Source: Candidatus Iainarchaeum sp.
GTDB taxonomy: Archaea > Iainarchaeota > Iainarchaeia > Iainarchaeales > JAZDDZ01
Direction of reading: 5' to 3'
Length of the DNA stretch: 51,356 nt
NCBI GenBank assembly: GCA_043809245.1
Contig: JAZDDZ010000048.1
Coordinates: 1-51,356, forward strand
Numbering within the stretch: the first letter of the stretch is position 1; every line of letters begins with the position of its first letter. The notes beneath the pieces were generated by a model. It saw only the letters and a list, made by a program, of their open reading frames with translations, was not told the DNA's origin and made no database searches. Positions 5,403 through 30,424 of the stretch are shown here, in pieces. Position numbers and translations under genes: made by a program.

Positions 5403-5430
5403 CGCACCGGAAATCCACTCTGTTCCGAAA
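5403..5430 (+). promoter_or_regulatory. Shared upstream motif, copy A (CGCACCGGAAATCCACTCTGTTCCGAAA), followed by TATA-like TTTAATTA
   Basis: Near-identical copies at 16503-16532(-), 29424-29449(+) and 30393-30420(+), each about 30-45 nt upstream of a start codon. Confidence 0.75.
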
Positions 5431-5474
5431 CCATTTAATTAAAAGAAAAAGCAATTGTTTCAGGAGGTGGGCAA

Positions 5475-5723
5475 ATGAATTCTCCGTTAAAGAAATTCAG
5501 CGCCGGCGCAATCCAGGTTGCGGTGTGGGAAAACAACGGCTCAGAGGGAAAGGTATTCCAATCAGTTTCAATTGACAGGCGATACAAGGACAAGAAAGGC
5601 GAATGGAAAAGCACTCACTCGTTAAAGCCAAGCGATGTCCCGAAAGCAATTGTTGCACTGCAGAAGGCATACGAGTTCGTTGTATTGAAGGAAACCGGCG
5701 CAGAAGTACAGATTGCAGAGTGA
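5475..5723 (+). CDS. Small PC4/Sub1-like putative ssDNA-binding protein
   Basis: IQVAVWEN...SVSIDRRYKDKKGEWKST..L pattern; strong SD GGAGGTG upstream. Confidence 0.65.
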   Translation: MNSPLKKFSAGAIQVAVWENNGSEGKVFQSVSIDRRYKDKKGEWKSTHSLKPSDVPKAIVALQKAYEFVVLKETGAEVQIAE

Positions 5724-5770
5724 AAAATGCAGCAGGCCGAAGAGGCAGCAAAAAAGGGTTAGGCGGCGCC

Positions 5771-6196
5771 ATGCAGAAAAGATTCTACGTTGACACCTCG
5801 GCGTGGAGGGACTTCCTGGAGAACAGGAGCGACGGCTTAAGGCCTTTGGGCGAGTTCGCCTTCAGGTTTTTGAATAAATGCAGGGAAAATCAATGCATAA
5901 TCTTTGTCTCAGATGTGGTCAAAGTAGAACTTGAGAAAGATATCTCTAAGGAAAGAATAATGGCAATGTTTTCTCCCTTCGAAGAAATCATAAGGCACAT
6001 ATCTGCCACAACCAGGGAGTTTTCAAATGCAAAGAACGAATGGATTAAAAGAGGGAAAAATTTGCCGTTCAACGACATTTTTCATGCAGTTATTGCCAAA
6101 AGCCACGGCGCCACATTGGTTTCAAGGGACAGGCACTTTGATTTGCTTGACCATGTTGTGGAAGTGAAAAAACCAGAGGAACTCATTTTTTGTTAA
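5771..6196 (+). CDS. PIN-domain (VapC-like) ribonuclease
   Basis: FYVDTSAW, ND..HA and LVSRDRHF motifs; start moved from the track's 5603 to ATG 5771. Confidence 0.9.
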   Translation: MQKRFYVDTSAWRDFLENRSDGLRPLGEFAFRFLNKCRENQCIIFVSDVVKVELEKDISKERIMAMFSPFEEIIRHISATTREFSNAKNEWIKRGKNLPFNDIFHAVIAKSHGATLVSRDRHFDLLDHVVEVKKPEELIFC

Positions 6197-6485
6197 GCCC
6201 GAATTTTTTTTCAAAGTGTTCCCTCAATTCTTTGCTTCCCTCGTTGCTTCTCCAGTTATGCCATTCCTCGTAGGTTTTGAACCTCATTTTTCCCTTGAAT
6301 GCGCCTTTCAGTGAAAGCAGCTTGTCCCAAGCCTCATCCGTCCGCCTTTTCTCTTCCAGCTCTTTCAGCTTGCTTCTGATTGCGTCGCGGATGAATTCTG
6401 TTTTCGTGGAGTAATTGAATTCGCGCATAACTTCGCTTATCTGCTTTGCTATTCCGCCTTCCAGCTTTAAGCTTACATTCTCCAT
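6183..6485 (-). CDS. Ribbon-helix-helix (CopG/NikR-like) regulator, putative antitoxin
   Basis: VSLKLE...YSTKTEFIRDAIR RHH pattern. Confidence 0.85.
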   Translation of the reverse strand: MENVSLKLEGGIAKQISEVMREFNYSTKTEFIRDAIRSKLKELEEKRRTDEAWDKLLSLKGAFKGKMRFKTYEEWHNWRSNEGSKELREHFEKKFGLNKK

Positions 6486-6487
6486 AC

Positions 6488-6506
6488 TACTTAGTAGTAC
6501 TAAGTA
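6488..6506. promoter_or_regulatory. Perfect inverted repeat TACTTAGTA-G-TACTAAGTA, probable RHH autoregulatory operator
   Basis: 9-bp arms with 1-nt spacer, 2 nt upstream of the RHH start codon. Confidence 0.65.
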
Positions 6507-6536
6507 ATCCTTAAAAAATATGCAGTTTATGGCGCT

Positions 6537-7103
6537 TCAAGGAGGCGTGCTTTCCCCGAGCGTCACGCCCGAGGCAATCAGGTGTGCAAGGCGCACGGGC
6601 TCGGGAAGGTTTGAGTGCAGCAGGAGCTTTTTTATTACAAGCTTTGCTGCCTGGGTTTCGCAGCCAATGCACTGGAAGTGCATTTGCCTGAACTCGTGTA
6701 TTGGCCCGGCTTTTTTTATCAGTTCAAGCCTTTTCTCCGAATCAGGGAGCCTGCTCAACGCTGCCTCGATTTTTTTCATGCGCGGCTTTTTCCTGAAAAC
6801 AACTATAACTGGCTTGGAAAATTTTTTGAACAGCTTTTGCGCGTCAGCAACGTTGAAGCCCGCAAAGTTTATGCCGCTTAAAAGAATGAATGAAACCTGC
6901 GGCAAAAATTTGCTTTCGGAAACAAGGCGAATTAGTTTTTGCGTTGCATCAAGGCCGTCAACTGTTATGTGAGTTGAAACAATGCCTTCAATGCGCGCGT
7001 CATTTCGGTAAACCACGCCAACAAGCGTTGAGTGCCTGCTTTTCCTCGGCTCAAAATAGCCGTCATCGAACGCGATTACGCGGATGAATTTTTTCAGGTT
7101 CAT
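6537..7103 (-). CDS. DUF99 family (endonuclease V-like) protein
   Basis: VIAFDD, VDGLDAT, GINFAGFNV and PEPVRLAHLIASG motifs. Confidence 0.9.
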   Translation of the reverse strand: MNLKKFIRVIAFDDGYFEPRKSRHSTLVGVVYRNDARIEGIVSTHITVDGLDATQKLIRLVSESKFLPQVSFILLSGINFAGFNVADAQKLFKKFSKPVIVVFRKKPRMKKIEAALSRLPDSEKRLELIKKAGPIHEFRQMHFQCIGCETQAAKLVIKKLLLHSNLPEPVRLAHLIASGVTLGESTPP

Positions 7104-7375
7104 TTCATCGCTTTCTTGAATCCTTTCTCGAAGTCATCCAAATCCTTTTCTATTTCGCCGCATGCCTCTGCCAAAGCCTTTGAAGGGGTTTTGCTTGAGG
7201 TCCTTAAAACAAAATGCGACCTGTTGTCAGTTGGGTGGTCGAGAAGGAATGAAACAAACTCCACGTTTTTGTCGCCCAACAGCTTTGTTTTCAAAAGGTT
7301 GGGAAACGTATAGCGCTCTCCCTCTACATAGAATTCAATCAGGTTTTTTTCGTTTTTCACTACGCTTAATTTCAT
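7100..7375 (-). CDS. rpoL: DNA-directed RNA polymerase subunit L (Rpo11)
   Basis: GERYTFPNLL...DHP motif; conserved csl4-rpoL-DUF99 gene order. Confidence 0.92.
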   Translation of the reverse strand: MKLSVVKNEKNLIEFYVEGERYTFPNLLKTKLLGDKNVEFVSFLLDHPTDNRSHFVLRTSSKTPSKALAEACGEIEKDLDDFEKGFKKAMK

Positions 7376-7401
7376 TAAAACACCTCTTTATCCGAAAAAA
7401 T

Positions 7402-7971
7402 TCACTTAAGCATGTAATCGCTTGAAATTTTCCTCGGCTCTGTCCTGCCGCAACAAGGGCATTTCAATTGCTCGCCTATCATGTGCAGCGGCTTCCTGCA
7501 TTTAACGCAGAATGCCTTTACAACGCCGAAGCTTTTGTCCTTTGTGTTCAGGTCGATTCCGTAATTGGTTACAGTAACAACGCCGGCCTTCACGATGTCC
7601 CCAACCCTGAACATGTCGCTCAGGAATTTCACATAACCCTGGCTAACATTGAATACCGGGAGAGATGCAAAAGTGTTAAGGATTGTGCGCGGCTCGTTGT
7701 TTTTTTCAGCCTTGAATAATTCAATTAAAACGCTTTGCTCTTTGACCAACGCAACTTTTCCGTAGGCAATGCTGCCTGGTTCAAGCGGCTTGACTTCCTT
7801 GGAAATTTTTTTCACTTTAACTTCCCTGCGCTTGTGGTCAAATTCCGGCACGCCGATGCATTCGCTTAACACATTCCCGTTCCCGTCCTCGAACGTGTTC
7901 TTGCCGCCCACAAACTCTTCTTCAATTCCAAGGAATTCCCCTGGAACAACCAATTGCTTTTTTTCCATCAT
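7402..7971 (-). CDS. csl4: Exosome complex RNA-binding protein Csl4
   Basis: VVPGEFLGIEEEF, S1 domain (FRVGDIVKA), C-terminal zinc ribbon C..C...CP.C and RKIS; start placed at ATG 7971. Confidence 0.95.
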   Translation of the reverse strand: MMEKKQLVVPGEFLGIEEEFVGGKNTFEDGNGNVLSECIGVPEFDHKRREVKVKKISKEVKPLEPGSIAYGKVALVKEQSVLIELFKAEKNNEPRTILNTFASLPVFNVSQGYVKFLSDMFRVGDIVKAGVVTVTNYGIDLNTKDKSFGVVKAFCVKCRKPLHMIGEQLKCPCCGRTEPRKISSDYMLK

Positions 7972-8079
7972 GCGAATTCTTTCCAGTAAAAGCCAAAAAT
8001 CAGCCTTAATGTATAAATAATTCTTCCTCAAGGAAATTTATTTAAAATAGGGTGTTTGCAGTCTTATACCGGGGAGAGA

Positions 8080-8985
8080 ATGGTTTTAGAGCTCATTTTA
8101 AGCGTTGTGGCATTAAGGCGCCATCCTTTCAACATGCTGTTCCTTTCCTTCCTGCTTTCAAGCATTGCATTGTTTGTAAGCTATTACACTTTCCCTGAAA
8201 GCTCAAGCATTTTAGCGCTTGCATTCGTTACAATTGCCTTGATGCCGATAATTGAAAGGATGCTTGTGGAAGAAGAGGAAGAAGAGGCAGTTAAGCCAGG
8301 TTCTCCAGGCAGTTTTCTCGCAAGGCACTTTGACCTTGTAGAGGTTTACGCCTGGTTCTTCATTGGCCTGGTGCTTAGCTATGGCTTCTGGTATGCCGTG
8401 CTTCCCGCAACAGCGCCGGCTTCATGCATTACTGATGCGTCCTTCCAGTGGGACTGCATTTTGCCCGCAAAAGACAAGGTTTTCGCTGAACAGGAAAAAA
8501 CCTGGAGCGTGATAAGCGGCTGGCAGAGCATGACTGGAAAAATCACTGGCTTTGTAGGGATAGGACCGGAAAGCTGTTTGGGGCAACAAAAGGAATTGCT
8601 TGCATGCACTGAATTCATTTACTTGAACAATTCCTTTGTGCTGGTGCTCGCAATATTTTTCTCCATTCTCTGGGGCGCGGGAGCGGTCTTTTTGCTTGGA
8701 TGGAACGCCTCGGTCATTGGATTGTTCATTGGCAAAGAGGCATTAAGCGGAATCGGGCCAGGGGTGCAGAGGGCAATAAGCTATCTGCCGCATGGAATTC
8801 CCGAAGTCTCAGGCTACTTCATTGGCGCAATTGCGGGGGGAATAATTTCCGCGCTTGTGACAAAAAGAAGATACAAACGCCACGAACTCTCAACAATCGC
8901 AATGGACGCATTCGTGCTAATATGCCTTGCATTCATCATTCTCTTTATCGGCGCGCTTATTGAAGCGTGGCTGATTGTGGGATGA
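8080..8985 (+). CDS. SpoIIM/DUF95 family integral membrane protein
   Basis: Multiple TM helices; IYLNN, WNASVIG and LPHGIPE motifs. Confidence 0.85.
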   Translation: MVLELILSVVALRRHPFNMLFLSFLLSSIALFVSYYTFPESSSILALAFVTIALMPIIERMLVEEEEEEAVKPGSPGSFLARHFDLVEVYAWFFIGLVLSYGFWYAVLPATAPASCITDASFQWDCILPAKDKVFAEQEKTWSVISGWQSMTGKITGFVGIGPESCLGQQKELLACTEFIYLNNSFVLVLAIFFSILWGAGAVFLLGWNASVIGLFIGKEALSGIGPGVQRAISYLPHGIPEVSGYFIGAIAGGIISALVTKRRYKRHELSTIAMDAFVLICLAFIILFIGALIEAWLIVG

Positions 8986-9002
8986 CCAGTTAAAAAAAAG
9001 TT

Positions 9003-9959
9003 TCACTTTTTCTTTTTCCCGTTTTTTTCCACTATTGCCTGTAGCGCGGGAGCGTATTTTCTGAATAGCTCTTCTAGTTCCCCTGATTGTTTTCCGCCAA
9101 TCCTTCCGCCAACTGCTTCGGCTAACCTGCTTATCTCCATGGGAAAAATGAATTTAGTGGATTTGCCTTCGCCTAATTTCTCAAGCGCGCGGATGTAATA
9201 GTATGCGAGCGCCTTGTCGCTTAACTGTTCCGCGGCTTCCCTTACCGCGTCGATTTCCGCCTGATGGGCCTTTGCTTCCTCCATTCGCCCAAGCTTTCTC
9301 TGCACTGCTGCCTTTTCCTCATGCATTGCGTCCATGACTGTCTTTGGAATTTGGACGTCCTTTATTTCAACTGACGTGCATTCAACTCCCCAGTCCTTGG
9401 AGATGGCTGTAAGGCCTTCCTTGAGTTTGGTGTTAAGGGTCTCAATGTTTGAAATCACTTCATTCAATGGCATTGAGCCGACAATGTCACGAATTGAAGC
9501 AAGGACATAAAGCACCAAAGCCCGCTTGTAGTCCTCTACTTCAATCACTGCCCTGTAAACTGATTCCGCGTCCTTTTTCACCCTCACGTAAAGAATTGCG
9601 TCAATGTTCAGCTCTATGCCATCCGCGGTTATCACGTCCTGTTTTGGAATGTCAACTGTCTGAATGCGCGTGTCAATTTTCACGTACTCGTCAATCGGCT
9701 GAAAAATAACCACCCAGCCGGGCCCCACAACCCTGTGGAATTTGTCAAAGCGGAAAATTACAGCGCGCTCGTATTCCTTTAACTGGAGAACGTAATCGTA
9801 ACGCCATAAAAGGAAGAGAATTGCAGCAGCAATCGCAACCAAGACAAGGTTCTGCACTATTATTTCCTGGAACTGCAGCAAAAGGAATAAAAGAAAGAAA
9901 ACCAGTGCAACCATTAAAAGGAAAAAAACCTGCTTTATCTGCCTTGCCTGCATCTCCAC
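9003..9959 (-). CDS. SPFH/band-7 (stomatin-like) protein
   Basis: EYERAVIFR, QDVITAD and WGVECTSVEIKDV motifs; N-terminal TM helices. Confidence 0.92.
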   Translation of the reverse strand: MEMQARQIKQVFFLLMVALVFFLLFLLLQFQEIIVQNLVLVAIAAAILFLLWRYDYVLQLKEYERAVIFRFDKFHRVVGPGWVVIFQPIDEYVKIDTRIQTVDIPKQDVITADGIELNIDAILYVRVKKDAESVYRAVIEVEDYKRALVLYVLASIRDIVGSMPLNEVISNIETLNTKLKEGLTAISKDWGVECTSVEIKDVQIPKTVMDAMHEEKAAVQRKLGRMEEAKAHQAEIDAVREAAEQLSDKALAYYYIRALEKLGEGKSTKFIFPMEISRLAEAVGGRIGGKQSGELEELFRKYAPALQAIVEKNGKKKK

Positions 9960-10035
9960 ACCCCAATTGCCTTATATCCGTTTCACAGATAATATTAAAT
10001 ATGAACTTAATTTAATATATAATAGTTAGCCTGCT

Positions 10036-11322: not shown

Positions 11323-11325
11323 AGT

Positions 11326-12261: not shown

Positions 12262-12295
12262 GAAAAAAATAGGTGCGGAATCTTATTTAAAATGA

Positions 12296-13513
12296 TTAAG
12301 CCTTAACCGCGGCTTTCTTTATTTCCCCGTTTAAAACTTCGCCTGCGCCGCCGAGGTTAATGAGTTTCTTTAGGCTCTGCAAGAGCTTTGCCTTTTTTGC
12401 GGATTTTTCAAAAGAGTTTTCAAGGACTTCTGAAAGCGTTGAAACGGGAATAACCTTGATTTTCTTCAGTTCTTCTTTTGCAATCACTATGTCCTGCAAG
12501 TTGGCTTTTGGAATAATCACTTCCCTGAAACCAGCCTTGATTGCGGAGCTTACCTTTGCAGTAATGCCGCCGACAGGCATTACTTCGCCTCTCACGCTCA
12601 AGGAACCAGTCATTGCAAGCGATTGTTTCACGGGAATTCCTTCCAACGCGGAAATAACTGCGGTTGCAACTGAAACGCTTGCACTGTCCCCTTCAACCCC
12701 TGAATAGGTTTGCAGGAACTGGATGTGCAAATCAAAAGTGGAAATGTCTTTTCCGCTCAGTTTTTTCACCAAAGCCGAAACATTCTGCACTGCTTCTTTT
12801 GCAATTTCCCCAAGTTTTCCTGTTGCAATGATTTTTCCCTCAGCCCTTGAAGCTGCAGGCGCAACCTCTGCCTCAATCGGCAGAACCAACCCCGCGTCTC
12901 CATCGCCTGAAACCGCCAAGCCGTTAACCCTTCCAACAGCTGTTCCCTCAAAGAGGTAAACCTGGTAATCCCTTTTCTCTTCCAAAATTTTGTTCATCAT
13001 CTGCTGTTCAAGCGTTCTGGCACTCATTTTTGCTTCAAGAACATCCTGCGCTGAAACGGATTTGTGGCCTTTTTCCTTTGCAATGTCTCCCGCGGCCCTC
13101 ACAAGGCCCCCCAAATCACGGAGCTTTAAAGTCAGTTTGTTTTTCCTTCCCGCTCTTCTCCTTGCCTCGAAAACAATTGATTCAACCGCTTCCCTTGAAA
13201 AAGCAGGAATCTTTGCGTCCTTTGCAACTTCCTGTGCAACGAATTGCACTATTTTATCCCTGTTCTCAGGATTATCATCCATGTCCAGGTTCATGTAAAT
13301 CTCGTAACCATAACCCCTGATTCTTGAACGCAAAGCAGGATGCACTTTTCTCAGGTCCTCGTAATTGCCTGCTGCAACCAAAACAAAATCGCAATTATGA
13401 ACAGCAACCCCATTCGCAAGATATGTGCCGGCGCTGGTTTTAAGATTGTAAACCATTCCAGCATAGTCAACCTCTTCAATTGAAACAATTTTTTTGGTGG
13501 AAAAATTAAACAT
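12296..13513 (-). CDS. lonB: LonB protease piece 3: IntC2 (40 aa) plus C-terminal AAA+ part and Ser-Lys protease domain
   Basis: ...VAVHN|[30 protein letters not shown] and PVGGITAK. Confidence 0.95.
13394..13513 (-). mobile_element. Split intein 2, C-terminal half (IntC2)
   Basis: Blocks F/G VYNLKT...[10 protein letters not shown] followed by +1 Cys. Confidence 0.93.
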
Positions 13514-15362
13514 TTAAATCACCTGCCTTTTTCCAGTAAAGCAGGGTAGTGTAAGGCATTTCAAGTTCGCGCGCCGCTCTTTTAAGAGTCAACCCGGCAT
13601 TAAGCAGGTCTGATGCGGTTCTTTTATGCATGGAAGAATAATGCCTATATGTAGGCCCGACTGTTTTCATAATCGTGTTTTTAGAAAGCATGATTCGCCT
13701 GCCAATTTCGTTTATTGTTAAACCGCTTGCCCGAAGCTCCAATGCCTTGGCTTTGTTTGATCCAAGCTCAACGCAATCTTCAGAGTATGCAACAGCTTTT
13801 CCAAACCGTTTTTTCATGTACTGTGCTTTACGGCTTGCATAATGAATTTGAACTGCCTTTTCAAATTGCATCACATTCTTATAATTATTGAAAATAGTAA
13901 AAGAATAACGCGCTGCTTTTTCAGCAGCACCCCCCTTGGATCTCGTATATTCTGTTGCCGTGATTTTACTGGTTTCCACGCCGTTTTCAGACAAAAAAGC
14001 CCTTATCTCATTTAAAAAAGCTAAATGTTGCTTTTCAAACCTTTTAACCTTGGCCATCACAAAAGAAATTTTATCGCTAGCGTTTTTTATTTTACCGCAC
14101 ATTTCACAGGATAACAATGCTGAAAAGAACTCCTTTTTTGTTTCGGCAGAAAAATTAATCCACAATGGAACAGCAATTGGCTTGGGTACCTTGCTGCCCA
14201 CTGGGACTCCGAGCGCTGAGAAAAAACGTGAAATGAAAGCATTATGCGCTGAAACTTCTAATCCGCTTCCTTTTAGGGAAGTCGTTTTTCTAAAAACAAA
14301 ATTTGAACTCAAATCTGTTCCAAAAACCTGGAGCAAATCGCGCTTAAACATCTCCAAGTCCGCCAAACTATTTGAATCTGTTGAAAAAAAAACGCCTGTT
14401 CTTGTTAAACCCCCATCACCGAACAGTGCTCCGCTAATCCTTGCAATCAACGGTAATCTGGGATCCGAATAAAGCAAAGGAAATAACCCTCTTTCCCCCA
14501 ACCAATCAATGCAACGGGAAGCCCTTGGAACAGTTCCTTTTTTCCAAGCAGCAATTGTTTTGCAATCTACCCCCAGACCTCTGGCCTTCAATAAGGGGTT
14601 TGCCTTCCAAGCAGCATATGCTTTTGCAATGCGCTGATTTTCTTTACTGTAGGTTTCCATAATTTTCACATCAGAAATTATTGCCTGAATTGCTTCCACT
14701 TCCTGCCAAAGGCTAAGGTCTTTTGCCTGAACAAAATCAGCCGGTGTTTTAATCGGATGCTCTTTGGTCGCCAATAATTCAGTGCCATCGTCAAAAATAA
14801 TTTTCATCAGTTTACCAGAAAATGGCCTCCTGTAAACCCGTTCAAGCATATCCAAAAAAATTCCATTATCTTTTGGAACCCAAATTTTAATAGAATCATT
14901 TAAGTCCAAAAACTCAGCATAGCCCTCTCTGTTAACTTGCCCTGCTCTGCTTTCAAACAACCTGTTTACAAACTCGTCAATCGCGGTTAATCCGTTTTCA
15001 GTGGCAATTAATGTTCCGCTTGGAAAACACGGCACTGCCTCAGTCCTAGTCATTGCCCCGCTTGACATCTCGCTCTGGCCTGTAATGGAATACTTTTTTT
15101 CCTGCATTGCGGTCAAAAGCTCCTGCTGTGCCTTGGGTGAAAGCGTTGCAATTTCATCCAAAAACAATACTCCCCCAGAAGAGCGGTGAATCATGCCGGG
15201 TTCAATGCGCAAATGAGGGGGGGTGCCCAAGCCACCGGAATTGTGCACTAAAATATCTTCAACGAACAAGTTGCCGGTTTCAGTCGTAACGTTGTAAACG
15301 TGGCCTTTGAATGGGTGCTTTTTCACGGAAGAAACATTTCCCTGCGTGGTTTTGTAATTCAT
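13506..15362 (-). CDS. lonB: LonB piece 2: IntC1 (41 aa), 70-aa Walker B extein, IntN2 with LAGLIDADG and HTH domains (507 aa)
   Basis: ...ILVHN|SGGLGTP...VLFLDE...TEAVP|CFPSGT; block B ATKEH; GALFGDGG. Confidence 0.93.
13509..15029 (-). mobile_element. Split intein 2, N-terminal half (IntN2) with fused homing endonuclease
   Basis: Cys1 CFPSGTLI, TxxH block B, LAGLIDADG-like [10 protein letters not shown], two C-terminal HTH-like segments; ends in a stop codon without blocks F/G. Confidence 0.9.
13518..13524 (-). promoter_or_regulatory. Shine-Dalgarno AGGTGAT for Lon piece 3
   Basis: Minus strand reads GCAGGTGATTTAAATGTTTAA: SD 4 nt before the ATG, with an 8-nt overlap of the upstream ORF. 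Confidence 0.8.
15240..15362 (-). mobile_element. Split intein 1, C-terminal half (IntC1)
   Basis: [20 protein letters not shown] followed by +1 Ser. Confidence 0.93.
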
Positions 15363-15384
15363 AAATAGTTCCTCTTACAAAAAC

Positions 15385-15393
15385 ATTAAATAG
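15385..15393 (-). promoter_or_regulatory. TATA-like box (CTATTTAAT) of a putative internal promoter for Lon piece 2
   Basis: Lies 22 nt upstream of ATG 15362; start context CTATTTATG is identical to that of Lon piece 1 (17556) and gene 18443. Confidence 0.55.
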
Positions 15394-15496
15394 GTTGCTC
15401 TGGGAACAGCAAGATTCCAACATGCAATAACTGCCACAACCCGCGGCATTCAAATTAAACCGCTACATGACAATAGCGCACCACCTTGTCTGGCAT

Positions 15497-16471
15497 TCAA
15501 AGGGTCTTTTCAACAGTTGCTCTCTTTATAACTTCATTAAATCTTTCCTTTTTATCCTGTGCATAACGCAATGAAAATTTCTCATTGCAAGAAATCACGT
15601 GATGAAATGTTGTCCTCAAGAATATTCTGTAGTTTGCAGTAAATGCCCCGTCTTTCCTGTGCCTACCGCCAGAATAGTTTTTGTAAATATTGCCGGTTGT
15701 TTGTACGCCTACGGACTTTAAAAGCGCCTCAACGCCTCTGAGGAAGCCCCTGTGCTCATCTTCAAGAAACTCAATCTTTGAAACTCCAATTGAAAGATCC
15801 GTGAAGCGATTATTGCCTCGGGAATCAGGCCGCCACCTTACAACTGAAACTTCTGATGCGAGGTAACCGTCAAGGAATGCAATGCTTGATTTTTCTGAAG
15901 CTTTGGAAATCCATTGCGGTAACAAGTAAGCAGCGGTTACCTTGTTTCCAACTGGCGCGCCCAAGGCTGCAAAAAATCTAACAACAGCCCTGTCATAGCA
16001 GCGAATATTGAAAGAGTGCCCGTATTCGCCTCCTTCGACAATCTGAGTTTTTCCCTCTGCAAAAGGGAAGACCCTTAGCAAATCCAAATGCCATAAGTCA
16101 ACATCCTTTTTATCTGAAGAAATGAATGCGACTGTGTTGAGCCTTACGTCTATTCCTCCATCGCCAAAAAGCACGCCAAGCATGTTTAAAACAATCTTGC
16201 AGTCCTTATGGCTTTCATAAAAAGGAAGCATGCCAGCAGAATTTAGCTTTTGAACTGCCTTCAACGGCAACGGAATGGCTTTCTTATCGCCCTTTGTATG
16301 CCACCATCTCGCCATTCCTTGTTTTACACCGAGAAGCTTGGCTGCCTTCTTATAGCCCATTGAAGGATTTTCTTCAATGAGTTTCAGATACTCAGAATAT
16401 TTCTTACAGGAAAACTGTTCTCTGGCAGAATACGTGTTGATTATGTCCTGTTCAGTTAGAATCGGCTCCAT
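15497..16471 (-). CDS. Free-standing LAGLIDADG homing endonuclease derived from Lon intein 1
   Basis: MLGVLFGDGG and FLDGYLASE; similar to the endonuclease part of IntN2 (FF.ALG.PVG.KV shared); lies between IntN1 and IntC1 in a different frame. Confidence 0.88.
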   Translation of the reverse strand: MEPILTEQDIINTYSAREQFSCKKYSEYLKLIEENPSMGYKKAAKLLGVKQGMARWWHTKGDKKAIPLPLKAVQKLNSAGMLPFYESHKDCKIVLNMLGVLFGDGGIDVRLNTVAFISSDKKDVDLWHLDLLRVFPFAEGKTQIVEGGEYGHSFNIRCYDRAVVRFFAALGAPVGNKVTAAYLLPQWISKASEKSSIAFLDGYLASEVSVVRWRPDSRGNNRFTDLSIGVSKIEFLEDEHRGFLRGVEALLKSVGVQTTGNIYKNYSGGRHRKDGAFTANYRIFLRTTFHHVISCNEKFSLRYAQDKKERFNEVIKRATVEKTL

Positions 16472-16502
16472 TAAAGAATTCCTTTTTCCGGCAATATCTT
16501 TG

Positions 16503-16532
16503 TTTCGGGACAGGGAGTGGATTTCCGCTGCG
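16503..16532 (-). promoter_or_regulatory. Shared upstream motif, copy B (CGCAGCGGAAATCCACTCCCTGTCCCGAAA)
   Basis: Inside the 92-nt spacer between the IntN1 stop and the endonuclease ATG; matches copies A, C and D. Confidence 0.75.
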
Positions 16533-16563
16533 ATATTAAATAGCCCGGCAATGAACTATTGCA

Positions 16564-17556
16564 TTATGCTTTCGCCAGCGTTATCAGCTTGTCTGCAGGA
16601 GAAATTTTTTCCGCAGCCTTGTCCTTGCCCGAAGTGATGACCTTGTGTTCAGGCGTAACTGTTACCTTATTTTTGCCTGACTGGATGTCGACTAATTCGC
16701 CGTCAAAAGGCTTTCTGTTGAGTGAAAGTATTCTGGAAAAAATAACTTCACCATTTTTATAGCCAAGGGTGAAAATTTTTTCTTTTTCAGGAAGCATTAT
16801 TGCTTCGTATCCTTTTTCTGCTTTGATTATCTCCGCAAAATATTTTTGGCTCATTTCATCCCAAAGTTTTTCAAATGAAATTTTTTTCACAATTCCATTT
16901 GAGATTAGTATTAACTCGTTAACGTTAACAAAACATTGAAGTGGATCGTGACGAACATCGCCAAGCAGTGCGCCTGCCCTTGCACCGGTAGCTTCAACGA
17001 ATGGCGCGATTTTTTTGCCTGAATTGTCAACCAAGAGCTTCGGCGTTTGAGCAGAGGAACGCGAACGCATCTGCGAGCCAACCGCAAAGCCAATCAATAA
17101 AAAGCCGCCTAAAATAAGTGTCGCGGCATAAACAATATCTGAAATGAATCCAAGCTGCCAGATGACGCTTGAAAGAATGAAGAACCCAAGCGGAAGCAGG
17201 AAACCCATTAACCGCATGTTGTCTTCCTCTCCTTTTGAGTCAGCCCTTGCCCGCTGGACAAGCTTTTTTCCCTCTCCCGCTTTCACAAGCCTTACCTTTG
17301 GGTTATTGGGGTCGGCTTTGTTGGGGTAAATAAGTATGTCGCTTAATTGCTGGACTGGCATCAATTCAGCCATTGCCTGAGCCAACATCGACTTGCCGGT
17401 GCCAGGGAGTCCAACCAACAAAACATTCCTTTTCTGGGCAGCGGCTTTCTTGATTAATTCAACGCTGCTGTCCTGGCCTAAAACCTGGTCAACCAGGCGC
17501 TTTGGAACCGGAATTTCTTTGGTGGACTCAAACTTCTTTGAAACCAAATCAGGCAT
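16564..17556 (-). CDS. lonB: LonB piece 1: N-terminal extein (207 aa; Walker A and two TM helices) plus IntN1 (123 aa)
   Basis: LVDQVLGQ, GLPGTGKS, hydrophobic insert, GALLGDVRHDPLQ|CFVNV; start moved to ATG 17556. Confidence 0.95.
   Translation of the reverse strand: MPDLVSKKFESTKEIPVPKRLVDQVLGQDSSVELIKKAAAQKRNVLLVGLPGTGKSMLAQAMAELMPVQQLSDILIYPNKADPNNPKVRLVKAGEGKKLVQRARADSKGEEDNMRLMGFLLPLGFFILSSVIWQLGFISDIVYAATLILGGFLLIGFAVGSQMRSRSSAQTPKLLVDNSGKKIAPFVEATGARAGALLGDVRHDPLQCFVNVNELILISNGIVKKISFEKLWDEMSQKYFAEIIKAEKGYEAIMLPEKEKIFTLGYKNGEVIFSRILSLNRKPFDGELVDIQSGKNKVTVTPEHKVITSGKDKAAEKISPADKLITLAKA
16567..16935 (-). mobile_element. Split intein 1, N-terminal half (IntN1)
   Basis: Cys1 and block B VTVTPEHKV, then TAA about 22 codons later. 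Confidence 0.92.
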
Positions 17557-17798
17557 AAATAGGCTAAGAAGACAAGAATTTAAAAAAAGAAGCATTAATT
17601 GGGGCAACGCTGTTTATGCCGTGCATTTATCTTAAGTGTTTGGCAACCGGCCCTGTATTTTAAGGCATTCGTCAATCGGAATGCCTGAAAGCCAGATGCT
17701 CAGCTTATTTAGGTTTGGATGGTTAAGTATTGAAAAAATATTTGAAACAGAAGCATAACTGTTTTGGGTTAAATGCTTTGGCGAAAATGCCTGCACGC

Positions 17799-18443: not shown

Positions 18444-18558
18444 AAATAGAACAAAGCAAAACCAGTATTTATTACTTCGTTTTTATCCAGGGATTTTAAA
18501 GCAAGTGAAAGCCATTGTTTTAATATTCTTTTAATTACTTTATATTAAAGGTGTTCTT

Positions 18559-19470: not shown

Positions 19471-19473
19471 CGG

Positions 19474-20196: not shown

Positions 20197-20197
20197 A

Positions 20198-20902: not shown

Positions 20903-20909
20903 AAAAGAT

Positions 20910-21599: not shown

Positions 21600-21705
21600 A
21601 ATAGCCCCTCTTAACAGATATTGCTGCATTGAGTTTAAATACCCCTTTTTGTTATGTGAAAAAAAGAACAATAAATTTTTAAGCAATTAATCACATTACT
21701 TAGGA

Positions 21706-22512: not shown

Positions 22513-22515
22513 AAA

Positions 22516-23369: not shown

Positions 23370-23451
23370 TTCTTTAACCTTTAAATAAAAAAGGAAATCG
23401 TTTATTTAAAGGTTTACTCTATAATTAATTGTTATTCAAGCGGGTGGAGTA

Positions 23452-24930: not shown

Positions 24931-24933
24931 AAT

Positions 24934-25596
24934 ATGGCGCAAAACCAAATTGACCCAATCGGCATAATAAAACGTAATTATGCTGCCTTTTTGGAAAAAA
25001 ACAAACGCGGAGCCAATGCATTTGACCGGAAACTGATGGACGGCATTATTGATAATTTAAGTGTTTTGCTTGACCCTAAAGCTTCAAAAGAAAAGCTTGA
25101 AAGGGTAGCTGAAAGGTTTGCTTCAAACATCACAAAATACTCGGATAACTCAACTGAAATGCGTGACGTATCATATCCCTCCAAGTTTTTGGAAATAGCG
25201 AAATTAGTACCTGAAATGCTGGAACGCCTTCCGCAAAAAAAAGCAATCTTATCTGCGCTTGAAAAAAATGGATTTACTTTCAGCAGCACTGCTGCAGGAA
25301 AACAAAGAAAAATTGGCAGAGGCATAGAGCCAAGTAGACTAAGCGATGCCGAAAAACGAATGGCGCTTGAGAACGCAAAGAGAATATTGCGTGGAGAAAA
25401 TGAAAAACCGCAACCGCCCGCAAAACAGGCAAAACCCGATGGGCCTCCCAAAGCGGTTGTTCCAGCAAGGCAAATGAGAAAACATGGAGCCCAAAAATAT
25501 CCCAAACCGCAGCCTCCAAGGCAGTCGCCTGTTCCATGGTATGCGAGAGGCAGGTTTAATCCGCTAAAGTTTTTGCGGAGAAGGGGGCCACGCTGA
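24934..25596 (+). CDS. Hypothetical protein with Pro/Arg-rich tail, between pheS and pheT
   Basis: 220-aa ORF starting 3 nt after the pheS stop; TGATG overlap with pheT. Confidence 0.7.
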   Translation: MAQNQIDPIGIIKRNYAAFLEKNKRGANAFDRKLMDGIIDNLSVLLDPKASKEKLERVAERFASNITKYSDNSTEMRDVSYPSKFLEIAKLVPEMLERLPQKKAILSALEKNGFTFSSTAAGKQRKIGRGIEPSRLSDAEKRMALENAKRILRGENEKPQPPAKQAKPDGPPKAVVPARQMRKHGAQKYPKPQPPRQSPVPWYARGRFNPLKFLRRRGPR

Positions 25597-27236
25597 TGCC
25601 GACAGTTGATGCGAGTTTGAATGACCTTTGCGGTTTGATTGGAAAAAAATTGTCAAAAGAAGAGTTAGGCGAGGCGCTTCTTTTCGCGAAAGCAGAAATT
25701 GATTCCAGTGAAGGGGATGCGTTAAAGATTGACGTGAAGGACTCAAACAGGCCTGACCTCTGGAGTGCGGAGGGAATTGCAAGGGAGTTAAGGTTCAGGT
25801 TGGGGCTGAAAAAAGGATTGCCAAAGTATAGCGCTGCAAAGCCAAAGGTTTCCGTTTTCGTGGAGAAAAGCGTTGAAAAAGTCAGGCCAAAAATAGCAGT
25901 AGCAATCGCGAAAAACGTGAATGTAACAGAGGATTTCCTGATTCAGCTGATTCAGTTGCAGGAAAAGGTTGCGGGAACCTTCGGGAGAAAAAGAAAGGAA
26001 GCCGCGATTGGAATATTTGATTTTGACAAAATCACCTGGCCAATTTATTACAGGGCTGTAAAGGACAATGAAGTGGAATTCGTTCCATTGGAGTTCAATG
26101 TGAAAATGCGCCCTTCAGAGATACTGAAAGAGCACCCAAAAGGAAAAGAGTATGCGCATTTGCTTGACGAGAAAAACTTTCCCATATTCATTGATGCCGC
26201 AAAGGAAGTGCTTTCAATGCCCCCAATAATCAATTCGGATTGGACTGGAAAGGTAACTGAGAAAACAAAAAACATTTACTTGGAGGTAAGCGGTTACAGG
26301 CAGGAAACCGTGAATACTGCGTTAAATGTGCTTGCAATGGCTTTGGCTGACCGCGGAGCAAAACTGGAGGCGGTGAACGTTGTTTACGGTCAGAGCAAAA
26401 AAATCGTAACGCCGCAGTTCGGCGTGAAGAAAAAATTGCTGGACCCAAAATTCGCGGAAAAGCTTGCAGGAATTGAATTGAGTGAAAGGCAAATCATTGA
26501 ATGCCTTTCACGCGCGGGAATGGATGCGAAAAAGAAAGGCAGTAAATTGGAGGTAACTTATCCTGATTACAGGCAGGACGTATTGCACGAGGTTGACCTG
26601 ATTGAGGATGTTTTGATCAGTTATGGGTACAGGAATTTCAAGCCGCAGAAAATTGAATTGGCTGTCACGGGAAAAGAACTGCCTCAAACAAGGTATTTGG
26701 ATGTTGTGAGAGAGGCGTGCATTGGAATGGGTTTGCAGGAAGTTCTCACATTTAACCTTACAAGCAGGGAAAAACAGGAAGCGAAAATCGGCTTGAAAGA
26801 AGAGAAATTTGTGGAGATAGCGAACCCTGTTTCATTGAATTACTCTTTGTTCAGGAAAAGGCTTTTGCCTGAACTGCTTGAATTCCTCGGGAAAAACAAG
26901 GACAAGGAGTTCCCGCAGATGATTTTCGAAGTCGGAAGGGCCTTGGAGCTTGACGCGAAAAGCGAGACAAGCGTGAAGGAAAAAAATTCGCTGTGCATTG
27001 TTTCAAGCCACAAGGAAGCCGGCTTCACAGAGGCGAAAAGCCTGTTGGAAACGGTTTGCAGCGCTTTGGGTTTAAAGTACGAGTTAAGCGAAACCAAGCT
27101 GCCTTTCCTTAAAGCGGGAAGGGGCGCGGAATTGAAAGTGAACGGAAAAAAAGGATTCATCGGCGAATTAAACGAAAAAACCCTCAAAGAATTCGGATTG
27201 GAGATGCCGGTTAGCGCAGTGGAATTAGAGCTTTGA
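25596..27236 (+). CDS. pheT: Phenylalanine--tRNA ligase beta subunit
   Basis: NRPDLWSAEGIAR, LSMPPIINS and YRQDVLHEVDLIED. Confidence 0.98.
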   Translation: MPTVDASLNDLCGLIGKKLSKEELGEALLFAKAEIDSSEGDALKIDVKDSNRPDLWSAEGIARELRFRLGLKKGLPKYSAAKPKVSVFVEKSVEKVRPKIAVAIAKNVNVTEDFLIQLIQLQEKVAGTFGRKRKEAAIGIFDFDKITWPIYYRAVKDNEVEFVPLEFNVKMRPSEILKEHPKGKEYAHLLDEKNFPIFIDAAKEVLSMPPIINSDWTGKVTEKTKNIYLEVSGYRQETVNTALNVLAMALADRGAKLEAVNVVYGQSKKIVTPQFGVKKKLLDPKFAEKLAGIELSERQIIECLSRAGMDAKKKGSKLEVTYPDYRQDVLHEVDLIEDVLISYGYRNFKPQKIELAVTGKELPQTRYLDVVREACIGMGLQEVLTFNLTSREKQEAKIGLKEEKFVEIANPVSLNYSLFRKRLLPELLEFLGKNKDKEFPQMIFEVGRALELDAKSETSVKEKNSLCIVSSHKEAGFTEAKSLLETVCSALGLKYELSETKLPFLKAGRGAELKVNGKKGFIGELNEKTLKEFGLEMPVSAVELEL

Positions 27237-28622
27237 TTAAAACAGCCTTGTCTGGTTTTGGTCTTCTTGTTGGATGCTTACTTTTTGTTCCGGGTCTTCT
27301 TCTGCTTGCTCAAATGCTTTGTGAAAGATGCCTCTTTTTTCCGCGATTATTTTCTTTTTGAGTTCCGTTGCCTGCGCTAAAATGTTCTGCACTTTTTTAG
27401 TGGAAGAAGTTGTCTCCATGAGGAATGCGAGCTCGTCTTCATCCAAGTCAAATGCTGCCGCGAATGAAACCGCTTTCGCTTTGTCCTTGAAAATAAGCTG
27501 CAAAAAGGGAAGGTCCTTTGACATCACTTCACGCGAAGAAGAATGCGTTTTCGCGCCAATCTTTTTGCCCAGCTCTTTTTTTAACGCGCGCAGGGAACGG
27601 CTTTTGCTTAGTTTCTGCAAAAGCGTTGGAAATTGAAATGGCGTAAAGGAATGGTATTCGTTGCTTCGGCTTAAAGCAACGCCTGAAGTCATCAGCTCCG
27701 AGCTGTAGCGCAAAAAGCCATAGTACTGGCGGCTGAAAATCCTGCCGTTAAAGACATCTGCCTTTGAAAGCATGTTGAATGCATTCGCAGTGTCAACCGG
27801 ATCAGAGTACTGCCTTGGAATGTTTTCTTCAATCCAGCGGAAAAGCAAGTCATTGTCAACGTCACTTGAAAACCTGGCGGAACGGATTTCCTTGAAGTCT
27901 TTTCCCTTGAAGATTTTTGAAAGAACTGAAAAAATTTTCTGCCCCCTTTCCCTGAAGCCAAGGGATTTAACCGCCTCTGAGTCAATTTTTCCGAAAGTCG
28001 CTGAAAGCGTCTGCAAATCAAGCAAAGCCGAGCGAAAATCGCCCTCCGAGTTTTTCGCGAATTCTTTGACTGCTTCCTCTTCAAAGGGAATTTTTTCAAA
28101 TGCCAAAAGCTCCTTAAGCCGTTTAGCAATTGAAAGGTAATTTATTTTTTTGAACTCCAATGGCTTTGCAGCAGAACGGAGCGCGGCTAATTTTTTGTCC
28201 GCATAAATGTCGTTAGCCGTGAGAATCACGGGGTTCATGCTTTCCTTCAGCACCTGAATTATTGCCCCTGCGCCTCCGCGGTCCTGTGCCTGCAAGCCAT
28301 CCACTTCGTCAATTAGCACCAATCGCCTTGAGGAGAAAAAAGATGCATTCAAAGCCGCGGCTCCTGCAAGCCTTTCAATTGCGTCCTTTGAACGGAAATC
28401 AGAGGCATTTAACTCAAAGACCTCCCAGTTGTTCACTCTGGCTATAAGATAGGCAAGCGAGGTTTTGCCTGCGCCGGCCTGACCGAAAAAAAGCAAGGGT
28501 TGTTGCTTTATGCCGTCAGCCCACTTCTTTGCCCAGTTTGATGCTTCCACAGCTATCTCGGAGTTGCCGATGAATTCCTCCAAAGACTTGGGGAAAAATT
28601 TCTCGGTCCAGAGTTGGGGCAT
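27237..28622 (-). CDS. rfcL: Replication factor C large subunit
   Basis: WTEKFFP, GAGKT, ELNASD, DEVD and C-terminal PIP box QTRLF; start moved to ATG 28622. Confidence 0.96.
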   Translation of the reverse strand: MPQLWTEKFFPKSLEEFIGNSEIAVEASNWAKKWADGIKQQPLLFFGQAGAGKTSLAYLIARVNNWEVFELNASDFRSKDAIERLAGAAALNASFFSSRRLVLIDEVDGLQAQDRGGAGAIIQVLKESMNPVILTANDIYADKKLAALRSAAKPLEFKKINYLSIAKRLKELLAFEKIPFEEEAVKEFAKNSEGDFRSALLDLQTLSATFGKIDSEAVKSLGFRERGQKIFSVLSKIFKGKDFKEIRSARFSSDVDNDLLFRWIEENIPRQYSDPVDTANAFNMLSKADVFNGRIFSRQYYGFLRYSSELMTSGVALSRSNEYHSFTPFQFPTLLQKLSKSRSLRALKKELGKKIGAKTHSSSREVMSKDLPFLQLIFKDKAKAVSFAAAFDLDEDELAFLMETTSSTKKVQNILAQATELKKKIIAEKRGIFHKAFEQAEEDPEQKVSIQQEDQNQTRLF

Positions 28623-28674
28623 AATATTTACTTGCAGGGAAACGCATAAATAGTTTATATAAGCCATTATCTTA

Positions 28675-29409
28675 ATGCCGCAGAAAAGCCCTGATGAAAG
28701 GCTGCTCCTGCTTATCACTTCCAGATGTTCTGGGAAGTGCCCTGAATGCCTTTACAGGGAAAATCTTGGAAGGCAAGCAGACCTTTCTTTGAATGCCCTT
28801 GAAGAAAAAATTCTTCCTTTTATAGGCAGCCGCCATGAAATTCACATTGCTGGCGGAGAGCCCACCGAGCACCCGCAATTTTTTAAGATAATTGAATTGA
28901 TTGCGGGCAAAAACCCTGCTTTCATCCAGATAATTTCAAACGGCTTGCCTTTCAGCGGTTCAAAAAGGGATGCTTCGGCATTTGCTTTAAGGCTTCAATC
29001 AATAGCTGACAAATCGCCCACTAGGATTTTTGCGCGCTTCTCAATTGATGACATTCACGCAGAAGGCATAAAAGGGGGCAAGGGCGAACTCGCAAGGCGC
29101 GCAAAAATAATAAATGAAGTTTTCTCCAAAACGCGCGGAAAACTAGGATTCGGTTTTTACTCGCTTAAGGACAAAGGACAGAAGGAATCTGAAATTCTCA
29201 GGGCTTATGGCTTGCCCAGGAAGAGAACAATGTTTAGCCTGGGTGAAAGGGGCTTCAAACTTGGGGGGAATGAGCCAACCACTTTTATTTCAGCCGAAGG
29301 AAATGTTTACAGGCATGAACGCGAATTCCTAAGAAGGCAGGCGCCAATGGGAAACATAACCAGCCTGCCCTTGCAGGAAATACTGAAAAGGCGCTATACG
29401 CACAGGTAA
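28675..29409 (+). CDS. Radical SAM protein
   Basis: CSGKCPEC (CxxxCxxC), GGEP and SNG. Confidence 0.85.
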   Translation: MPQKSPDERLLLLITSRCSGKCPECLYRENLGRQADLSLNALEEKILPFIGSRHEIHIAGGEPTEHPQFFKIIELIAGKNPAFIQIISNGLPFSGSKRDASAFALRLQSIADKSPTRIFARFSIDDIHAEGIKGGKGELARRAKIINEVFSKTRGKLGFGFYSLKDKGQKESEILRAYGLPRKRTMFSLGERGFKLGGNEPTTFISAEGNVYRHEREFLRRQAPMGNITSLPLQEILKRRYTHR

Positions 29410-29423
29410 TGCAGCCATACAAC

Positions 29424-29449
29424 CGCAGCGGAAACGCACTGTCCCGAAA
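29424..29449 (+). promoter_or_regulatory. Shared upstream motif, copy C (CGCAGCGGAAACGCACTGTCCCGAAA), followed by CTTAATAT
   Basis: Matches copies A, B and D; upstream of the Bro-N gene. Confidence 0.72.
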
Positions 29450-29490
29450 CCTTAATATGCCTGAATAAGGCAAATCAATATGGTGGCGGA

Positions 29491-30333
29491 ATGGATTCGC
29501 ATAATGCGCTGGTTGTTTTTGAAGGGAAAAAAATCAGGAGAGTCTGGCATAACGAAGAATGGTTTTTCTCGGTTGTTGACATAATTGAGGCATTGACCGA
29601 TAGCCCTACGCCTCGCCAATATTGGGGCAAGATGAAGGGCAGGGATTTTTCACAACTTGAACTGTCCCCAATTTGGGTACAGTTGAAATTGCCTGCAGAT
29701 GATGGAAAACTCAGGTTTACAGACTGTGTGAACACCAAGAGCGCTTTCAGGATAATCCAGTCAATCCCTTCAAAAAAGGCAGAGCCATTCAAGCAATGGC
29801 TTGCAAAGGTAGGATATGAACGCGTGCAAGAGATTGAGAACCCCGAACTGGCACAGGAACGGATGAAGCGATTGTACGAGCAAAAAGGCTATTCCAAGGA
29901 ATGGATTGAGAAAAGGATTAGAGGCATTGCGGTAAGGCAGGAATTGACAGGCGAATGGAAAAACAGGGGCGCAAACCATAACGCGGAATTTGCCATCCTG
30001 ACTGACGAGATTTCGAAAGCAACGTTTGACAAGACAGTTGAAGAATACAAGCGGCATAAAAATCTTTCAAAAGAGAATCTCCGCGACCACATGGATGACT
30101 TGGAATTGATACTCACAATGTTGGGCGAGGCCACGACAACAAGGCTTACGCGTGAAAGGGATTCGCAAAAATTTCCCAGGCTGAAAAATGACGCAAAGGA
30201 CGGCGGGGAAGTTGCCGGGAGCACCAGGAAAAACATCGAGCAAAAGCTCGGAAAAAGCGTTGTTTCCGGCGACAACTATTTGGAAACTCCTGAGAAAAAG
30301 AAACGGCTGGAAAACCAAAAACAGATAAAATAA
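29491..30333 (+). CDS. Bro-N domain (phage antirepressor/DinD-like) DNA-binding protein
   Basis: FEGKKIRRVW...WFFSVVD, RIIQSIPSKKAEPFKQWLA and NLRDHM. Confidence 0.9.
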   Translation: MDSHNALVVFEGKKIRRVWHNEEWFFSVVDIIEALTDSPTPRQYWGKMKGRDFSQLELSPIWVQLKLPADDGKLRFTDCVNTKSAFRIIQSIPSKKAEPFKQWLAKVGYERVQEIENPELAQERMKRLYEQKGYSKEWIEKRIRGIAVRQELTGEWKNRGANHNAEFAILTDEISKATFDKTVEEYKRHKNLSKENLRDHMDDLELILTMLGEATTTRLTRERDSQKFPRLKNDAKDGGEVAGSTRKNIEQKLGKSVVSGDNYLETPEKKKRLENQKQIK

Positions 30334-30367
30334 AGAATTAACTGCGCATAAATGTATTCGTGGTTTA

Positions 30368-30424
30368 ATGCTAATCGGTGTCGTGGGAAAGCCGCAGCGG
30401 AAGTCTACTCTGTTCCGAAAGTGA
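30368..30424 (+). pseudogene. Relic 5' end of ychF (MLIGVVGKPQRKSTLFRK*)
   Basis: Manual translation aligns with the ILIGIVGRTNTGKTTFF start of downstream ychF, including similar upstream context GTGGTTT. Confidence 0.65.
30393..30420 (+). promoter_or_regulatory. Shared upstream motif, copy D (CGCAGCGGAAGTCTACTCTGTTCCGAAA), followed by GATATAT
   Basis: 25/28 identical to copy A; 32 nt upstream of the LAGLIDADG gene. Confidence 0.75.

Follow-up and report, generated by a model that had tools for sequence, protein, structure and literature searches.

The question raised by this locus is why one short sequence stands ahead of several genes at once and what it does there. The locus lies in a stretch of 51,356 nucleotides (the window; contig C48) from a genome of the DPANN phylum Iainarchaeota (G000; 1.48 Mb in 55 contigs, 91.8% complete). 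A preliminary description of this DNA had pointed to a four-copy promoter motif linking a gene for a single-stranded DNA (ssDNA)-binding protein, a Bro-N gene, and two free homing endonuclease genes, and had proposed an SOS-like or DNA-uptake regulon that the homing endonucleases have joined. The pattern CGCASCGGAA-N6-12-TGTYCCGAAA is indeed exact at all four positions given there, i.e., 5403–5430 (+), 16503–16532 (−), 29424–29449 (+), and 30393–30420 (+), and these four matches in the window compare with none in 100 dinucleotide-preserving shuffles; the full pattern has no further match in the genome (four in total). Each copy is followed, as described, by an A/T-rich box and a gene, the start codons lying 44, 31, 41, and 32 nt past the end of copies 1–4, respectively. 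The four copies are very probably instances of a more general upstream promoter element of approximately 21–24 bp which, judged from sequence, would mark a recombination, repair, and replication regulon. The proposal of a regulon is supported, and the preliminary interpretation as a whole is partly supported.

The 5′ half of the four-copy pattern recurs on many contigs of the genome, each time ahead of an A/T box. A 24-nt position weight matrix (PWM) was built by script from the hits in this genome, and its consensus is TTCCGCA[C/G]CGG[A/C]AA[T/C]NCACT[C/G]; an earlier iteration, run at a fixed threshold, had drifted to 551 sites of low information and was not used. At a threshold of ≥19 bits, 38 sites were obtained versus approximately 0.7 for column-permuted PWMs, and at ≥24.8 bits 27 strong sites were retained, which are scattered singly over 15 contigs. 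A strict pattern of 16 nt was matched 21 times in the same genome, and its reversed control was not matched. The geometry of the strong sites is fixed: a TATA-like run (a pure A/T run of ≥6 nt) begins 7–17 nt (mode 10) past the ACTC block at 25 of the 27 sites versus 13% of 5000 random positions, and a long open reading frame (ORF) starts on the same strand 34–57 nt past the site in 23 of 27 cases, which fits leaderless or short-leader mRNAs. Since the element ends approximately 10 bp before the TATA box, it lies directly upstream of the transcription factor B (TFB) recognition element (BRE). Information content is highest in the motif, at 1.22 bit per column, versus 0.47 for the TATA zone and approximately 0.1 across 45 nt upstream and 55 nt downstream of the 27 sites; flanks devoid of conservation indicate that the element does not terminate a longer repeat. 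The TTCC left half is moderately conserved, column counts revealed no co-variation between it and the A/C choice in GG[A/C]AA, and the site is asymmetric.

The preliminary description had suggested that the CCGAAA end of the pattern may be a BRE. This end does lie in the BRE place, as at 5425–5430, just 5′ of the TATA-like box of site 1, but TGTYCCGAAA does not belong to the general element: of the 27 strong sites only five have it, namely those of the window and one on C17 ahead of a Bro-N fragment, and at other strong sites the BRE place is occupied by CAAAGCG, GAAAGC, and similar sequences. Eleven exact matches in viral contigs are regarded as chance occurrences because all lie in contigs of 51–70% G+C and none is followed by an A/T box. 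As a separate observation, a weaker site of G000 (C50:440–480; 23.9 bits) contains two tandem copies of the half-motif GCACCTAAAGT followed by a TATA box, and a trypsin-like peptidase gene follows 130 nt downstream.

Sorted by target, the 27 strong sites stand ahead of nine DNA-metabolism genes, 14 genes of selfish or mobile type, and four others:
RadA, with an intein
SSB-like oligonucleotide-binding (OB) protein
MCM
NurA
archaeal RecJ (514 bits against a cut-off of 360)
Cas4/PD-(D/E)XK nuclease
N4/N6 DNA methylase
radical-SAM and helix-hairpin-helix (HhH) protein, TIGR03916-like (292 bits, under the cut-off of 343.5)
C10:20612–22138 (= L001:1131–2657), minus strand, 508-aa PolB-like protein, recognized by its structure model
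selfish or mobile type: seven LAGLIDADG-type, four PIN, two Bro-N, and one TnpB
others: the 82-aa/PIN operon of the window and three function-unassigned genes (132, 274, and 388 aa), without a match in Pfam (E to 1) or NCBIfam.

The placement is thus neither random nor confined to unrelated genes. A scan of the genome and its relatives for radA, ssb, and similar genes behind the motif had been proposed as the check on the regulon, and the 5′ half of the four-copy pattern was found before radA, SSB, MCM, NurA, RecJ, and nuclease genes. The idea of a DNA-uptake regulon is not supported: no dprA or other DNA-uptake gene is among the targets. The proposal that homing endonucleases have joined the regulon is supported, with the element ahead of eight of 11 free-standing LAGLIDADG ORFs (counting one extra site of 19.5 bits); it was not found with the intein-borne LAGLIDADG copies of G000. 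All five close PIN paralogues stand behind the element, four directly and one via the 82-aa gene.

The element is furthermore conserved across the phylum. Among 215 Iainarchaeota genomes, the strict pattern was matched 131 times in 42 genomes versus 12 times for the reversed control (sums over the table). Forty strict-pattern sites in six relatives share the same order of motif, TATA box, and ATG. Fourteen of these stand before DNA-metabolism genes, namely those for PolB-like proteins (three), SSB (two), radical-SAM/HhH proteins (two), MCM, NurA, Hef, NreA, a PD-(D/E)XK nuclease, an exonuclease of RNase-H-like type, and a methylase; a further 16 stand before genes of the LAGLIDADG, Bro-N, TnpB, or HicB kind; and the rest comprise one orthologue of the 82-aa gene, one flavodoxin gene, and eight unassigned or doubtful cases. 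Four Bro-N genes stand behind the motif in the genomes G003 and G025. For radA, a relaxed form of the element, accompanied by a correctly spaced A/T box, was present upstream in 26 of 30 relatives versus 25 of 150 control windows. For the PolB-like gene, the core was present in 30 of 64 loci from public genomes, and most of the other loci carry one of two clade variants, of the ACGGCGG[T/A]3 type or the GCACTGGACAGCTACCCCCC type; radA of the same genomes is preceded by the same clade variants. Variants common to radA and the PolB-like gene suggest that the element and its reader changed together in whole clades, a joint change that a regulon would predict and signals specific to single genes would not.

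Several target genes merit a description of their own. The 508-aa protein has no match in Pfam or NCBIfam, and a PDB sequence search yielded nothing usable, whereas its AlphaFold model (mean predicted local distance difference test score, pLDDT, 92) resembles archaeal family-B DNA polymerases (Foldseek E 5e-10; template modelling score, TM, 0.48 over the query; approximately 10% identity). The family is spread across Iainarchaeota, always behind the motif or a variant of it, with four invariant cysteines and no aspartate among the invariant or nearly invariant columns, and it appears to be a truncated and probably inactive PolB-like protein. The SSB-like gene (L002:376–847; C23:6589–7060) is in two frames of 34 aa and then 109 aa, and its G013 orthologue is a single 144-aa ORF; the gene contains a frameshift, either real or from assembly. 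The leader of radA (L006:355–436, C23) and those of 14 relatives, 75–90 nt long, share a hairpin (GGGAA...loop YYCCCAAA...UUCCC) that is conserved and lies 5′ of the Shine-Dalgarno sequence. In this hairpin, 79% of cells pair versus 61% in shuffles, and two-sided changes occur in 22 cells versus 8.6 in shuffles, a value that none of 500 shuffles reached. The leader corresponds to no Rfam family and may be a new cis-regulatory RNA.

In the window, the four sites and the genes that follow them are arranged as follows:
5400..5423, plus strand, motif site 1 (24-nt PWM window), 33.4 bits, exact pattern match
5433..5444, plus strand, TATA-like box of site 1, an A/T run 12 nt past ACTC
5475..5723, plus strand, ORF of a conserved small protein of 82 aa, the first gene after site 1
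5603–6196, plus strand, ORF of a PIN gene after the 82-aa gene, PIN domain in residues 62–183 (Pfam E 3.3e-07)
16512..16535, minus strand, motif site 2, 32.7 bits, exact pattern match
16493..16501, minus strand, A/T-rich box of site 2, AAAGATATT, read from the sequence
15497..16471, minus strand, 324-aa LAGLIDADG-related ORF amid pieces of a LonB protease gene (BLASTP match to a LAGLIDADG_3 protein, E 2e-07)
29421..29444, plus strand, motif site 3, 29.8 bits, exact pattern match
29452..29458, plus strand, TATA-like box of site 3 (TTAATAT), an A/T run 10 nt past ACTG
29491..30333, plus strand, Bro-N domain protein of 280 aa (Pfam Bro-N E 1.4e-08)
30390..30413, plus strand, motif site 4, 26.1 bits, exact pattern match
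30424..30429, plus strand, TATA-like box of site 4 (ATATAT), an A/T run 13 nt past ACTC
30453..31841, plus strand, 462-aa protein with an ArsR-type winged helix-turn-helix (HTH_5 E 6.7e-09).

Of the four boxes, that of site 2, AAAGATATT, resembles a TATA box least, and it does not pass the test for a pure A/T run of 6 nt. Among the gene assignments of the preliminary description, that of Bro-N is confirmed, and orthologues with 42–73% identity are present in 13 of the 41 genomes covered by the orthologue searches (Bro-N, 82-aa protein, and Cdc6). The two supposed free homing endonucleases fared differently. The 324-aa ORF matches a LAGLIDADG_3 protein in the BLASTP search, with no match in a Pfam search, and retains this description, whereas the 462-aa protein matches only the N-terminal part of such a protein (E 4e-06) and carries the ArsR-type domain, so that its LAGLIDADG kinship is only weakly suggested by sequence comparison. 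The label of ssDNA-binding protein for the 82-aa gene is not supported: no family hit was obtained in Pfam (to E 1) or NCBIfam, and a PDB sequence search gave nothing usable. Its fold model (pLDDT 86), a four-strand sheet with a helix, only weakly resembles the folds of YbaB, Pur-alpha, and PC4 (Foldseek E ≥0.07; VIA Z ≤6.3). The protein has 78 relatives, of which the named ones are only Diapherotrites or unclassified archaeal records and one Planctomycetota record. The motif core was found upstream of the 82-aa gene in nine of 22 genomes.

Certain features of the surroundings are recorded here. A search for sequencing runs over 28600–32000 found none. Site 1 sits in a divergent intergenic region (5357–5474) with a second TATA-like box at 5379–5390, approximately 10 nt away on the other side, which could serve a minus-strand operon (4607–5356) and the PCNA gene (3801–4577); this single, partly palindromic site may control both directions. 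The distance between the 82-aa gene and cdc6-1 is approximately 0.3–5 kb in no fewer than seven relatives (G005, G016, G019, G025, G027, G036, G037, G040), but the two genes are not so close in G000. The LonB gene pieces extend over 12296–17607 (−), with the Walker A part at 16564–17607, the middle part of the AAA domain with an intein at 13506–15362, and the LID and Lon_C domains at 12296–13513. The 324-aa ORF comes, with its own motif promoter, after the Walker A piece, and the endonuclease gene appears to split the host LonB gene. At 43544–48667 (−), a 1707-aa Cdc48-type AAA ATPase contains two intein-splicing stretches and a LAGLIDADG domain. LAGLIDADG inteins are present in several further long ORFs, and both inteins and free endonuclease genes are unusually numerous in G000.

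How, then, would the element act? A sequence-specific DNA-binding protein would read it directly upstream of the BRE and TATA box, and the bound factor would most likely help TFB and the TATA-binding protein (TBP) onto the promoter, i.e., serve as an activator, because the site lies upstream of the core promoter. As a rule in archaea, a site upstream leads to activation, and one that overlaps the TATA box or the start site leads to repression. The signal would be DNA damage or a phase of replication. Free LAGLIDADG endonucleases, TnpB, Bro-N, and PIN/HicB modules carry the same element together with a TATA box of their own, and selfish genes sharing the element would be expressed together with the recombination machinery of the cell. 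Some points weigh against such a regulon under activation. Many core replication genes have no strong site, and a scan for weaker sites with the right geometry yielded only 21 candidates, few of them convincing. Three targets are of unassigned function, and PIN and HicB genes are not DNA-repair genes. Furthermore, the enrichment of DNA-metabolism genes among the targets was judged without an annotated genome-wide background, and the choice between activation and repression follows from position, by the rule given above.

The alternative that fares best follows the logic of LexA: the element would be the operator of a repressor, and the genes would stay off until the protein is displaced by damage or a cell-cycle signal. 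Taken alone, the core promoters appear complete, with TTTAAA or TTTATA boxes and purine-rich BRE-like sequences, and the target list resembles bacterial SOS regulons down to the TIGR03916-like radical-SAM protein; in addition, an inverted copy of the motif in the relative G016 nearly abuts a TATA box. The strong sites, however, end approximately 10 nt before the TATA box and leave the BRE, TATA box, and start site uncovered. Archaeal repressors usually sit over one of these three. The element is also borne by the essential genes mcm, ssb, and radA, and no LexA-type DNA-binding domain above cut-off was found in the genome, the best hit of LexA_DNA_bind in G000 being 15.4 bits, under its cut-off of 23.7. 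Repression is therefore considered rather unlikely, if a serious candidate.

An extended core-promoter signal read by a specialized TFB or TBP paralogue, with no separate regulator, is improbable. The fixed distance to the TATA box and the strict orientation speak for this reading, but the conserved bases lie 10–31 nt upstream of the TATA box, beyond the reach of TFB. TFB reads the 6–7 nt upstream of TATA. A precedent is offered by Sulfolobus, in which a TFB paralogue is stated, in the available part of the source, to drive cyclic transcription (bioRxiv 10.64898/2026.09.06.749720). That the copies are the ends of miniature inverted-repeat transposable elements, or promoter cassette remnants spread by homing endonucleases with no regulatory meaning for host genes, is close to refuted and of very slight probability: more than half of the 27 sites are ahead of mobile or selfish genes, the five sites in the window and on C17 share the extra TGTYCCGAAA, and the promoter of the 324-aa ORF is inside the stretch interrupting LonB, but nothing is conserved beyond the 24 nt and the TATA zone, single-copy core genes bear the element at positions that are orthologous across many families (26 of 30 relatives for radA; 64 loci for the PolB-like gene), clade variants change jointly at different genes, and the exact viral-contig matches are due to chance.

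The activator model raises the question of which protein reads the element. The Bro-N protein was rejected as the reader because of its patchy distribution and its absence from the search results for the motif-bearing genomes G027 and G016. The 82-aa protein, present in 22 of 41 genomes and not found in the motif-bearing G003, G013, and G039, was rejected likewise. No E2F_TDP domain was matched at E to 1 in G000 (91.8% complete). A candidate reader is an Orc1/Cdc6 protein encoded in the window:
36153..37274, minus strand, Orc1/Cdc6 paralogue Cdc6-2, with Cdc6_lid, AAA, and Cdc6_C domains.

A second paralogue, Cdc6-1, is encoded on another contig (C44). As a refinement of the activator model, one of the two, most likely Cdc6-2, is tentatively put forward as a transcription factor acting on a site akin to the origin recognition box (ORB); this assignment of the regulator to Orc1/Cdc6, which the preliminary description had also suggested, is possible and still doubtful. 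In its favour, the block order TTCC..GGAAAT..ACTC is common to the element and the ORB1 oligonucleotide of Pyrococcus furiosus as given in the available part of the source (PMC1904270), and the proposed likeness to mini-ORB stands in this respect, whereas the block spacings, which differ from those of ORB by 1–2 nt in that text, do not agree. The radA sites of some relatives read CAGTGGAAAT or TAGTGGAAAT, and a conserved TAGTGGAAGTG-type dyad upstream of cdc6-1 has the GGAA core in common with the element. Two Orc1/Cdc6 matches were found in 38 of 41 genomes; with both paralogues nearly universal, presence or absence is uninformative. The recognition helix and wing of the winged helix (wH) are near-invariant in Cdc6-1 across three motif-variant clades and clade-specific in Cdc6-2, like the motif, but this co-variation tracks phylogeny, and any fast-evolving factor would show the same. 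An apparent loss of alignment in the Cdc6-2 wH of family f3 was not upheld in other variant-C genomes. The inverted motif copy of G016 is 5 nt from the TATA box of cdc6-2. Precedent comes from Sulfolobus, in which Orc1-2 binds the promoters of damage-response genes, according to the available part of the report (PMC6061795).

Against an Orc1/Cdc6 reader, the sites are single and scattered in promoters with no origin clustering, and the cdc6-2 promoter of G000 is without the motif. No motif copy was found as an ORB repeat beside either cdc6 gene of G000, and the cdc6-1 upstream region holds a different dyad (GTGGAAG). The parallel drawn to Orc1-2 is not supported either: in a comparison by best PDB hit only, both paralogues are closest to Sso Cdc6-1 (2qby_A; E 3e-52 and 2e-72) and Ape ORC1, and Ape ORC2 (1w5s) is far more distant (E 3e-14 and 1.5e-23), so that neither paralogue, the Cdc6 of the window included, is an Orc1-2 orthologue by this test. 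Two arrangements at the cdc6 genes are described for their own sake. Upstream of cdc6-1 (L038:~525–560, C44), an ORB-like dyad, TAGTGGAAG-N-CTTCCAC, is followed by ACTC and then by a TATA box, and the dyad is also present in L172, L173, L174, L171, L219, and L221, from genomes of different motif-variant clades. In G016 (L080:1790–1850, contig C1), the inverted motif copy stops 5 nt short of the TATA-like box that precedes the cdc6-2 orthologue, and the strand to which it points carries no real gene.

The boldest form of the activator model, speculative and on present judgment somewhat improbable, is a programme similar to SOS or E2F in which an Orc1/Cdc6 paralogue peculiar to the lineage, having arisen by duplication of the replication initiator, would read an ORB-derived element and jointly switch on the recombinase, SSB, MCM, end-resection nucleases, and the diverged PolB. 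Factor and motif would have co-evolved by clade, and homing endonucleases, TnpB, and Bro-N would have copied the element, cutting or moving only when host recombination is up.

If the regulon is real, radA, ssb, mcm, nurA, recJ, and nuclease genes are joined by a single cis element that is conserved throughout a DPANN phylum. Transcriptional co-regulation of actual recombination and repair genes in archaea is an unsettled question, for which the element makes a concrete prediction, and this prediction covers organisms that cannot be grown alone. For selfish genes, a host regulatory signal would be a simple way to time activity to recombination, and for function-unassigned proteins, such as the 508-aa PolB-like one, membership suggests a likely role in DNA metabolism. 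An SOS-like control circuit has not yet been described for Iainarchaeota, and a literature search, with supplementary files outside its scope, found no description of the motif or regulon.

Among known systems, the damage element of Sulfolobales, 5′-ANTTTC-3′ within AATAGTTTCRGWDTACTCWS, bound by Orc1-2, invites the first comparison, as far as the available part of its description extends (PMC6061795). Both are archaeal promoter-proximal elements of a damage-linked gene set, located tens of nucleotides upstream of the start codons of mostly leaderless genes, and both combine a TTTC/GAAA block with an ACTC block. They differ in sequence, orientation, and block spacing: on the reverse strand, the Iainarchaeota motif reads GATTTCC or CGTTTCC, contains no ANTTTC, and does not align with the 20-nt consensus in that part of the source. 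The targets named there are upsA, upsE, tfb3, and cedA1, which are not repair genes, versus radA, ssb, and mcm here, and the Orc1/Cdc6 proteins of Iainarchaeota are not ORC2/Orc1-2-like by best PDB hit. With ORB and mini-ORB, as represented in the available text of PMC1904270, the element shares a TTCC...GGAA dyad followed by an ACTC block and a core, CAG[C/T]GGAAA[T/C], that resembles CCAGTGGAAAT, whereas its dyad spacing is 2 nt longer and its GGAAAT-to-ACTC spacing 1 nt shorter. Unlike ORB, the sites here are single, oriented, promoter-bound, and scattered, with no clustering at an unwinding element.

The bacterial SOS system with LexA is alike in that one short, operator-like motif stands before a recA-type recombinase, ssb, nucleases, and a TIGR03916-like radical-SAM gene, and in that mobile elements plug into the same circuit. 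By contrast, the promoter here is of the archaeal TATA/BRE kind, the site is upstream of the core promoter instead of over it, the replicative helicase MCM is included, and no LexA-type domain exceeded the cut-off. Eukaryotic G1/S regulons (E2F; fungal MBF/SBF) likewise join MCM, an RPA/SSB-type protein, and a Rad51-type recombinase through one cis element, and the palindromic TTCCGC-N-GCGGAA recalls the E2F site; however, a search of the genome gave no winged-helix domain of the E2F/DP type, and the likeness is one of logic only. From the SOS box, the E2F site, and the Sulfolobales element alike, the element is set apart by its sequence, its lineage, and targets that are true recombination and replication genes. 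Finally, archaeal activators such as Ptr2 and TFB-RF1 have sites immediately upstream of BRE/TATA at a fixed distance, each serving one or a few operons, whereas the element described here defines approximately 27 promoters and is conserved phylum-wide.

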